A stretch of 62,053 nucleotides of DNA, filler included, from Porpidia crustulata (taxonomy: Eukaryota): NCBI GenBank assembly GCA_964255105.1. It is 7 parts of 7 records of this genome, joined end to end, with 100 filler letters (N's around TTAATTAATTAA, not from the genome) between each part and the next. Parts side by side here need not be neighbours in the genome. Positions count along the whole stretch, not along the records: positions 53,288 to 62,053 come from CAXUWE010001056.1; 6 more parts are not named here. One strand, given 5' to 3'. Under the pieces are notes generated by a model, which saw nothing but the letters and a program-made list of their open reading frames with translations, was not told the origin of the DNA and searched no databases. The position numbers and the translations under genes are program-made. Numbering within the stretch: the first letter of the stretch is position 1; every line of letters starts with the position of its first letter. Shown one piece after another: positions 53,818 to 56,245 of the stretch.

Positions 53818-56245
53818 CTATGGGGAACTCGGGGGTCTTTCAGCGGCGACGAAAGCTGATGCCCCCAAGCCGTCCGGCTCATGCTTCCCCTCGTCCGTTA
53901 TTCCCATCCTGAGTTCTTCGTCTACTTCAGCTTTGCGTTCTGCCTCTTGGAGTCTGATGTGTTTGTTTTCTTGGTATCGGGCCTCGGCCTCAGCTTCGGC
54001 CCGCTGAGCTGCCTCGATGGCTTTGATGATTTCTTCCTGAAACGGGTCTGACGCTGGGGGGTCCAGTAGTCTAGATTTTGGCGACGGGTTAGTTGTTTGA
54101 CGGGCAGAAGACGGGGTCAAGGGCTGGGTGCGCTTGGCGCCCTCATTTGCCTTATTCAGAGCTCGAATCTCGGAGACTGGGCTCCGGACATGACCCCAGT
54201 CATTTAGGACTGGGTTGGTGAGCTGGAAGTCGCGTGAAAACTGGACTAGATCGGGCAGTCGAGGTGGTCCAGTCTGCGGTTGTTCTTGCTTCTTCGGAAT
54301 CGTCGCTAGAAGATTTTCAGCTATTGCTTTCGCCGCAACTTCTTTCCTGTCTGGTAACTGCTCTCTGTGAACTGTGGATGAAAGCCTTGGAGGTAGCGTC
54401 ACTTTTGCCTCGACTTCTTGCTTACGTGGCAACAAGGGCTTTCCACTGTCCTCTGCTGCCTTTTCGATCCTCAAATCCTTGATGTCTAGTCCGCGAAACC
54501 TGATGTGGTCATATACAATGGCAGATGGTGGAACTGTCTCACCAGACCAGCGGTCTTCAGTGCCAAAGGAAACAACCCCCGTAAGAGCAACGGTTGAGCT
54601 TTCCGAATCGATTTCTTCAAGTGTTCCGCAGTAGCTGAGAAACATTAACCCTTGAGAACTGAATGAGAGCGACCAAATGGAATACATACCGCATGTCTCT
54701 GTTGGTGATTAGAGAGATTCGCAAGCCAATGAACTCACCAGACCCGGTTGGTGTAACTTTGGATTTTTGTGACGTCAATGCTGGGGATTTGTCCTCGATA
54801 CTCTTTGTTTCTGGCGCACGACGATATCGCTCTGGCAGCGTTACTGAAGCTACACCCCCTTTGTACCGGGATAATGAGAGGTCAGCGTGCGGTTTGCGGT
54901 ATTGAGTATTCCCTTGAAGAGCAGGACGAGAATACTCAGGCAGCGTCGTCGAAGCTTCTAGCGATTTATGTTTGGTTGGTGAGTAATAGGGGTACGGTAT
55001 GGGGTATTGAGTTGGTATTTCGGTGGCACGACGAGATCGTTCAGGTAGCTTCATCGAAGCTTCTGGCTGCTTGTACTGGGATGATGCGCGATAGGGCGCT
55101 TGCCCTACAGGCTGAATGCGAGAAGTCTCTTGCGATTCCTGTATCTGTGTACTTTGGAGATTGTTGTGGCCACTGCCATGTATGTGAAATTGATCGTGCA
55201 ACGCTGGCACTTCGCTCGGAGGCTCCAGCCAAGTATGTTGCAGTGATTGTTCGGCACTCAATCGATTACTTGGTTCAATGGCCATCATCTTTCGGACAAA
55301 GTCGATTGCTTCGTATCCTATGGACTCAAGGACACCACTCGGAAAAGGCTTCTGACCTTGACAGTATTTCAAGAGGCCACGACCATTAGGAAATGGCACG
55401 GAGGTTGTAAGGAGCCAAGATACTATACAGCCCAAGGACCACATGTCGACGGCGTTGCTATAGCTGAAGATCTCTTCGTCGTCACCTAAAAGGCGCATGA
55501 CCTCAGGCGCGACGTAGTCACCAGACATGCTCGTTCGAAGCATTGTGAGACCTTCTTTGACACGTTTGGAGATGCCGAAATCGCCAATCTTTACCCACCA
55601 ATTCGGAGATTTGGAAACGACAAAGATATTCTACATAGAAAAGAGATAATAAGTCTTCGGCCACCAGAAGCTGAGGTATCAAAAGTCGTACCAACGGTTT
55701 CAGATCCCTATGACTGAAGTTCTGGTCGTGCATTGTCTTTAATCCCTCGAGGATCTGTGTCACAATGACTTTGGTTTCTGATTCAGCTAGTGAAGTCGAT
55801 ACACAGTGCTGTAATGAGCCTAATGAAAGGTATTCCATGGCTATGTAGACTTTTGATGTCGTTTCAAACCATCCTAGGAAGGAAACATACGTAGAGCTAT
55901 CCTGCACAAGTATTAAGCCATGTCAAAACAATATAGGAGAATTACGATTACTCTCGAAAAATAAGCCATTGCAAGTAGCTCTCTCTCATAATCAATCTTC
56001 CTCGACATCTCGTCATATTTGCGAACCTCTTTCACGGCTCTTAGTTCGCCTCCATGTTCCCTTTCTAGCCACACATCCCCAAAGCCTCCCTGACCAATCT
56101 CCTTTACACGAGTCCATTGTGTCGTCTTCTTGGCTTTCCTGATACCTCGGGCTGGATCTGAGTAAATGCGAGTGTGCTCAACGTAGCCGGAGAAGTTCCT
56201 GTATTCCAGTCGGAAATAGTTGACCAGGTCGGAGCTGGTCTCCAT
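53818..56245 (-). CDS. Ser/Thr protein kinase with C-terminal Scd6/Lsm14 Sm-like domain (4 exons)
   Basis: GQGGFG, AVK, RE, HRDLKP|N, DFG, APE and DMWSLG are all intact. Then [44 protein letters not shown]...YDHIRFRGLDIKDL (intron 54635-54689). Confidence 0.88.

Follow-up and report, generated by a model that had tools for sequence, protein, structure and literature searches.

Within a stretch of 62,053 nucleotides from Porpidia crustulata (assembly GCA_964255105.1) – the window, as we call the whole stretch analysed here – positions 53818-56245 of the minus strand hold a gene in which a Ser/Thr protein kinase is followed by a linker, by an Sm domain of the type found in Scd6 and LSM14, and by a tail that the nearest related kinases share. 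Within the Sm domain lies an intron at the very site, and in the very phase, of an intron in the SCD6 gene, which argues for a capture of the domain as genomic DNA. No description of an LSM14/Scd6-like Sm domain combined with a Pkinase domain was found in the full-text literature, and the architecture is apparently rare and undescribed: a variant in which a modular kinase is joined to an LSM14 docking domain.

Gene structure and domain identities

The spliced model of the gene comprises the features below, where a slash marks an exon junction or intron site and P0164 is a CAMK kinase of Lasallia pustulata.

53818-56245, minus: kinase–LSM14 coding region, 753 codons and a stop, in four exons with three GT..AG introns
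56245-55952, 55901-55692, 55630-54690 and 54634-53818, minus: exons 1 to 4 of the spliced model
55902-55951, minus: intron 1, 50 nucleotides, GTAATC...GCAG, phase 0; its junction AMAYFSR/DSSTY matches AMAYFSRDASTF of P0164
55631-55691, minus: intron 2, 61 nucleotides, GTACGA...GTAG, phase 0; its junction HRDLKPL/NIFVVSK matches HRDLKPTNIFVVSK of P0164
54635-54689, minus: intron 3, 55 nucleotides, GTATGT...CTCAG, phase 2, in the Arg codon before a Tyr (R/Y)
55226-56113, minus: Ser/Thr protein kinase domain, CAMK-like, residues ~45-303, matched by Pfam Pkinase on three exon reading frames
56078-56098, minus: glycine-rich loop (G-loop) IGQGGFG, a catalytic motif
56027-56044, minus: LRAVKE with the catalytic Lys (K72)
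55628-55715, minus: HRDLKPLN, interrupted by intron 2
55568-55588, minus: DFG, a catalytic motif
55499-55516, minus: APE, a catalytic motif
54743-55225, minus: linker of ~160 residues, no Pfam match
54821-55048, minus: three degenerate 35-residue units in the linker, at residues 363, 398 and 433
54460-54736, minus: Scd6-type LSM14 Sm domain, residues 467-540, divided by intron 3
54190-54264, minus: conserved tail motif LPDLVQFSRDFQLTNPV (also PRLPDLVQFSRDFQLTNPVLNDWGH), residues 606-630
53902-54048, minus: long charged alpha-helix near the C-terminus, residues 678-726

The reading frames themselves tie the kinase to the Sm domain. The open reading frame (ORF) at 54617-55630 (minus) begins with 135 residues of kinase C-lobe (Pkinase, E 2.9e-22, profile positions 128-263) and ends with the first 15 positions of the LSM14 profile, which are missing from the ORF at 53818-54708 (minus); with the C-lobe and the first Sm strand in one frame, a single uninterrupted ORF runs from the kinase through the linker into the Sm domain, and the intron at 54635-54689 joins this ORF to the next. 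Upstream, residues 1-303 of the model align end to end with P0164 at 60% identity (E 2e-132), crossing both kinase introns, and this alignment validates exons 1-3.

The Pkinase profile (PF00069) is matched over positions 2-263, spread across the three exons, and the catalytic set is complete, with G-loop, VAIK Lys, HRD, DFG and APE all in place. As the closest solved kinases are Rad53, Chk2, CaMK and MAPKAPK2, the kinase can be placed in the CAMK group. The gene appears to be intact and lineage-restricted, and it encodes what is predicted to be a catalytically competent CAMK-like Ser/Thr kinase.

The identity of the Sm domain is equally clear from several methods. Even on exon 4 alone, the ORF at 53818-54708 (minus) matches PF12701 (LSM14, the Scd6-like Sm domain) with an E value of 5e-18 and 65.3 bits over profile positions 16-74 of 75, the gathering score of that family being 30 bits. 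When the window protein, together with its relative P0010, was compared by hhalign with 20 full-length fungal Scd6 proteins, only the Sm domain was aligned (63 columns, 57% identity, probability 99.7), and identity to fungal Scd6 domains spans 57-65%. An AlphaFold2 model of exon 4 – Sm strand 1 sits in exon 3 and is thus outside it – gives the Sm part block-mean predicted local distance difference test (pLDDT) values of 73-96. Searched with Foldseek, it finds as its top solved match 6f9w_A, the LSM14 LSm domain with a 4E-T peptide (E 8e-5, 57% identity), followed by 2vxf and 2vxe, with zebrafish RAP55 and Drosophila Tral among the best; the modelled fold is an Sm-like beta-barrel nearest to the solved LSM14 LSm domains.

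The rest of Scd6 is absent. Neither Pfam at E<=0.1 nor the comparison with the 20 Scd6 proteins reveals an FDF/TFG region (PF09532), and the 753-residue model contains no RGG or FDF tripeptide. A candidate FDF region in the tail (residues 100-270), proposed because its Atlas features lay nearest to FDF clusters at 0.84, was rejected, as this is below the bar of 0.9 and Pfam and hhalign show none. By these searches the protein is not a full Scd6 orthologue, the Sm domain being all that the two share. The likeness to Scd6/LSm14A (Rap55, Tral, CAR-1) thus lies in an LSM14-family Sm domain, N-terminal in those proteins and recognised here by both Pfam and fold, with the same EFIG... start and the same intron site and phase; the differences are that the Sm domain of the window protein is internal, behind the kinase, that it evolves far faster than that of true Scd6, and that the FDF/TFG region and RGG box are missing. 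Edc3 (LSm16) likewise uses an LSM14-type Sm domain, for docking on Dcp2/DCP1 helical motifs (PMC3877753), but it has FDF and YjeF_N domains, and the LSm domain of human EDC3 is only a weak fold match to the window model (rank 10, E 0.59). Another unusual arrangement occurs in P0011 (314 residues) and P0043 (505 residues), each of which has two LSM14 Sm domains in tandem.

These results agree with the original prediction, made from the DNA alone, which had read a kinase followed in frame by a Scd6/Lsm14 Sm domain, had placed an intron at exactly the positions that join the two ORFs, and had seen no FDF or RGG region; the spliced model contains, without a single mismatch, the peptides that it quoted.

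The linker between kinase and Sm domain has a regularity of its own. Each of its three units carries (E/V)AS..LPE(R/Y)(S/Y)R, with a period of exactly 35 residues, and no tandem repeat is found at the DNA level; the repeat could represent a repeated docking or phosphorylation site.

Origin of the Sm domain and the conserved tail

The intron that divides the Sm domain speaks to its origin. For comparison, 589 pattern matches in metagenomes were narrowed to 107 confirmed relatives, and the best 80 of these SCD6-like loci served as the reference. The Sm homology of the window starts at EFIG, which corresponds to codons 3-6 of fungal SCD6 (MSEFIG...). An intron at the window's exact site and phase (CG/GT...AG/N TAY, between 'DIR' and 'Y'), 49-75 nucleotides long, is present in 57 of the 80 loci, while the domain is contiguous at that R/Y site in 21 and two could not be scored. 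Judged by site and phase, intron 3 is a positional homologue of the SCD6 intron, which points to a capture of genomic DNA rather than of processed mRNA and argues that the Sm domain probably derives from an SCD6 gene in this way. No match to the kinase, linker or tail lies beside SCD6 in any of the 80 loci.

In 56 of the 57 loci that bear the R/Y intron, 'FIG' is not contiguous in the DNA with strand 1, which fits a second, upstream SCD6 intron; the read-through ORF P0021 shows the same. The window copy differs in lacking this upstream intron, which in SCD6 divides 'FIG' from strand 1. In these fungi, the Sm domain of canonical SCD6 seems to be interrupted by two short introns, the first following MSEFIG and the second separating DIR from Y, and the small exon between them is often annotated wrongly by gene callers (P0006, P0033 and P0162 read MSEFIG/YVG).

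What surrounds the Sm domain belongs to a kinase subfamily. The two best kinase matches, P0163 and P0164, are 62-63% identical in the C-lobe, and a FastTree phylogeny – the only kinase tree built, in which P0093, another relative, sits on a long branch and is unreliably placed – groups them with the window kinase in one supported clade (98). The tail motif of the window protein matches KLNDLKKFSQAFKLPTPVPKDL of P0164 and has equivalents in P0163, P0278, P0093 and P0010. The tails of P0163 and P0164 read '...KLNDLK.FS..FKLPT.VPKDLLPIL...' and then form a short helix near the C-terminus, and P0278, a fragment made up of kinase end, linker and tail, also has the motif. In a one-to-one comparison, residues 570-627 of the window protein align, without any change of order, with 482-536 of P0164 (31% identity, E 0.016). 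P0164, P0163 and P0278 thus resemble the window protein in a kinase that is 60-63% identical, in the N-terminus and in a motif followed by a helix, and differ in having no LSM14 domain between kinase and tail. The presence of the motif in these nearest, LSM14-free kinases indicates that the tail belongs to the subfamily, whose ancestral design would be kinase–linker–tail. By this comparison, the Sm domain is inserted between the kinase and a conserved subfamily tail ('LNDLKKF...FKL.TPVP.DL' and then the helix).

In the AlphaFold2 model, the region of the motif (exon-4 residues 61-195) is disordered, with pLDDT below 50 for the motif itself, whereas the helix that follows (exon-4 residues 196-244, 49 residues) reaches about 90; this C-terminal helix is also the best-conserved stretch of the tail between the window protein and P0010.

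The motif had been taken for one resembling fungal Pbp1/ataxin-2, and a similar short motif may lie in the disordered middle of these proteins. A search for Pbp1 with a profile of three motif regions, in a set of 5.8 billion proteins, found none and returned only P0009, P0010, P0093 and P0278 among 342 candidates; the same profile had no match in the PDB. The SM-ATX and LsmAD domains are both absent from the ORFs of the window at E<=0.1 and have no above-threshold match in the relatives examined. Two near misses concern P0093, in which SM-ATX scores 29.1 against a cut-off of 29.8, beneath a far stronger LSM14 match, and in which residues 756-816 were aligned, in one sub-threshold row of the Atlas structure search, to an LsmAD-containing cluster of Ascomycota. 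In the full-text literature, the literal motif strings gave only an unrelated match. The Mkt1-binding region has been mapped in yeast Pbp1 (PMC12345631), and ataxin-2 chimeras are covered in PMC12898128, the available portion of which contains nothing on Scd6 or on a kinase–LSM14 combination. The window protein therefore differs from Pbp1/ataxin-2 in having neither SM-ATX nor an above-threshold LsmAD, its motif being a feature of the kinase subfamily.

The wider family of this kinase is strikingly modular at the C-terminus. According to the domain lists of 115 kinase homologues of 549-2000 residues, none carries PF12701; their C-termini include WD40, ankyrin, TPR, SH3, formin GBD/FH3 and RRM plus bromodomain, as well as RhoGAP, PH, caspase, ENTH, Ras and PAH domains. 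A nucleotide-binding oligomerisation domain or NOD-like receptor (NOD/NLR) module, such as NACHT or NB-ARC, was found neither in the gene, nor on its contig (53288-62053), nor in these domain lists.

The combination of Sm domain and tail has relatives of its own. At E<=1e-3, an exhaustive HMMER search with exon 4 matched 557 proteins; among the 150 of these that were listed, three have both parts: P0009, which is the window's own ORF, P0010 and P0093, each the sole member of its cluster. P0010 (244 residues) is 47-52% identical across the Sm part and the whole tail, is open over its entire length and begins with MFLSY, the same read-through of the intron-3 acceptor, which makes it an orthologue or close paralogue of exon 4. 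P0093, a metagenome ORF of 816 residues, shows the order of the window protein, with kinase C-lobe (Pkinase, E 1.5e-14), linker, LSM14 domain (109.8 bits) and a tail that ends with the motif; it differs in its Sm domain, which has no intron, in its longer tail (~520 residues) and in its unsettled place in the kinase tree. Since its kinase is only ~35% identical and the design is the same, the architecture appears to have been kept over a large divergence. A complex prediction for the P0093 Sm domain (198-292) and its own tail end (762-816) scored 0.04, the mark being 0.34, and gave no answer either way.

Several expectations about origin had been raised before this analysis. That the Sm domain is a captured host domain fits its start at codon 3 of SCD6 and its intron at the SCD6 site and phase, and related kinases do exchange C-terminal domains, as had been suggested, among them WD40, ankyrin, TPR, SH3, RhoGAP, caspase and ENTH. 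The downstream motif has turned out to be real and conserved, but this gene did not acquire it on its own by a second capture, as it is present also in the LSM14-free P0163, P0164 and P0278.

Possible roles of the fused Sm domain

A role can be proposed by analogy with the known partners of LSM14-type domains. In EDC3 and LSm14A/Scd6, the Sm domain is a monomer without RNA-binding activity (PMC3877753); instead, helical leucine-rich motifs (HLMs) are bound via Sm strands 2 and 5, and in yeasts these motifs sit in the C-terminal extension of Dcp2, where Edc3 and Scd6 compete (PMC3877753). In the history that we envisage, the 5' part of SCD6, from codon 3 to the end of the Sm domain and with one intron, would have entered the kinase gene as a genomic copy, landing in the linker that precedes the tail. 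The captured Sm domain, if the gene is expressed, would then most likely dock the kinase on Dcp2-type helical motifs, its putative binding partner, and so place it in Dcp2-containing decapping messenger ribonucleoproteins (mRNPs) or P-bodies. There the kinase, presumably active, would either have components of these particles as its substrates or act as a competitor of Scd6 and Edc3, and the tail might supply a second contact. We put at about even the chance that the captured domain does dock the kinase on Dcp2-type motifs in decapping mRNPs or P-bodies.

Several findings weigh against this proposal. Of the public sequencing runs, a single one was listed as containing the gene sequence, and it is not on record as RNA; splicing and transcript are predictions. 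The unit of Sm domain and tail occurs in only three sequences among the 150 listed of the 557 matches, and P0010 covers only the counterpart of exon 4. Moreover, the fused domains have changed quickly: in a maximum-likelihood tree of 72 Sm domains – one of few columns, which does not resolve the placement of the three fused domains – the terminal branches are 5.57 for the window, 2.04 for P0093 and 1.87 for P0010, against a median of 0.12, and the amino-acid composition of the window domain is odd. Conservation across 69 true rows reaches at least 90% at 41 positions; the conserved residue is kept at 34 of these 41 in the window, 36 of 41 in P0093 and 28 of 33 in P0010; the window value of 83% compares with a minimum of 90% in the 69 true copies. 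Some of the changed positions lie in strand 2, part of the surface that binds HLMs, and the partner specificity of the fused domain may have changed or been lost. This pattern of conservation shows an intact core, which defines the fold, and a surface that has drifted, a drift that fits new partner specificity, relaxed constraint and diversifying selection alike.

The same observations could speak for a young chimera, neutral or decaying, in which a segmental duplication placed a 5' fragment of SCD6 in a kinase gene whose product is unexpressed or without a role. The very long branch and odd composition of the window domain, the Sm-free nearest kinases, the lack of an RNA run and the disorder modelled for the motif region would all be expected of such a gene; 753 open codons over four exons with intact GT..AG sites would not, nor would the open frame and conserved tail of P0010 at ~50% identity, the retention of the core Sm positions, or the existence of P0093 as an independent or ancient second instance, and we regard a neutral or decaying chimera as unlikely. 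Another explanation is an artefact, in which a kinase gene and a separate SCD6 paralogue, or a chimeric assembly, have been read as one. The gene does lie on a short contig (8766 nucleotides) of a fragmented assembly; yet the Sm domain starts inside the ORF of the kinase C-lobe, and P0093, from another sample, joins kinase and LSM14 within a single ORF. A Logan contig of 8716 nucleotides, from a separate build, matches 53326-58300 with no differences and thus covers the whole gene, although it is weak independent support for the assembly, since the run behind it – the single public run that contains the sequence – is probably the source data. An artefact is therefore very improbable.

Two further explanations grant the protein a role of a different kind. 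The original prediction had proposed an integrated decoy or sensor; on this view, the Sm domain, perhaps with the tail, would mimic hubs of mRNA-decay granules, so that a viral or other foreign factor binding or modifying the bait would switch on a kinase alarm. Several observations favour it: the interchangeable C-termini of the wider family include the WD40, ankyrin and TPR domains typical of the sensor ends of fungal NLRs, those receptors can begin with a Pkinase domain (PMC9815663), the gene stands head to head with a degenerate kinase-like gene, and the captured domain has changed far more quickly than its counterpart in true Scd6, as baits often do. Rapid evolution would, however, follow any duplication just as readily; neither the gene nor its 8.8-kb contig carries a NOD/NLR module, and nothing found here ties the gene to viruses. 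Plant kinase fusion proteins and the integrated decoys of NLRs resemble the window gene in joining a kinase to a domain derived from a host protein, but no resistance phenotype, NLR partner or pathogen link is known for the window gene. With none of the present results supporting decoy function or the sensing of mycoviruses, we hold this explanation to be decidedly unlikely. Alternatively, the Sm domain might regulate the kinase rather than target it, with the tail motif as its helical ligand, bound in cis (autoinhibition) or in trans (oligomerisation). LSM14-type Sm domains do bind short amphipathic helices (PMC3877753), and Sm domain and motif co-occur in the three sequences; on the other hand, the motif is not predicted to be helical, and its presence without an Sm domain in the nearest relatives means that it must have another partner there, so that the chance of such regulation appears slim.

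A broader version of the docking proposal concerns a small subfamily of kinases from ascomycetes, probably lichen-forming ones: copies of parts of mRNA-granule hubs would connect these kinases to the hubs, by way of a tail motif resembling that of Pbp1/ataxin-2 and, in certain members, of the Scd6 Sm domain as well. We consider this improbable. If it were true, the Pbp1-type motif and the Scd6-type Sm domain would be predicted to act in one complex, in the manner of a 'Rosetta stone'; the kinases would regulate decapping and P-body dynamics, or guard the hubs as baits and signal an attack by a virus or effector, possibly acting jointly with the degenerate, divergently transcribed kinase next door.

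Genomic surroundings and significance

The analysed stretch consists of seven unrelated contigs, each of ~8.8 kb, joined by N44-TTAATTAATTAA-N44 linkers with stops in all six frames. The true neighbourhood of the kinase–LSM14 gene is 53288-62053 alone, and synteny over the joints carries no meaning.

8792-8891, 17682-17781, 26564-26663, 35445-35544, 44317-44416 and 53188-53287: artificial joints, N44-TTAATTAATTAA-N44
53188-53287: artificial joint nearest to the kinase–LSM14 gene, 530 bp past its stop codon

On the same contig, head to head with the kinase gene, lies a 516-codon ORF without a start Met (56737-58287, plus), which requires another exon upstream. Its N-terminal part is helical and is accompanied by a degenerate kinase-like domain, in which HKN replaces HRD and there is no DFG; its matches are weak (Pkinase 0.0042, DUF7580 0.016, RSK-type kinases 2.5e-5), and it is possibly a pseudokinase.

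The other contigs hold genes of different kinds. On one, a terpene cyclase resembling trichodiene synthase (TRI5, matched by two exon ORFs at 1.3e-93 and 8.1e-69) adjoins a cytochrome P450 (21521-22781, minus, and 24438-25373, plus), the pair likely representing a sesquiterpene gene cluster. An ORF at 4709-5413 (plus) has a RelA/SpoT domain (4.2e-14), which is unusual in fungi outside NLR-type proteins. At 48053-49567 (minus) and 50597-52321 (minus), an ORF of the PD-(D/E)XK nuclease family (PDDEXK_12, 3.6e-66) and ORFs of the same contig with a weak match to DUF7924 (0.0023) are possibly mobile-element remnants.

Phosphorylation regulates decapping factors and P-bodies, and we know of no kinase with a docking domain of its own for the decapping network. 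The practical weight of the kinase–LSM14 gene is limited by its three sequences, none of which comes from a tractable organism. If its product is made and active, however, it would provide an example from nature of a kinase anchored to Dcp2-type helical motifs; the gene would offer a clean case of the capture of an intron-bearing exon in fungi, and it would give a handle on the conserved, uncharacterised tail motif that is common to the kinase subfamily.

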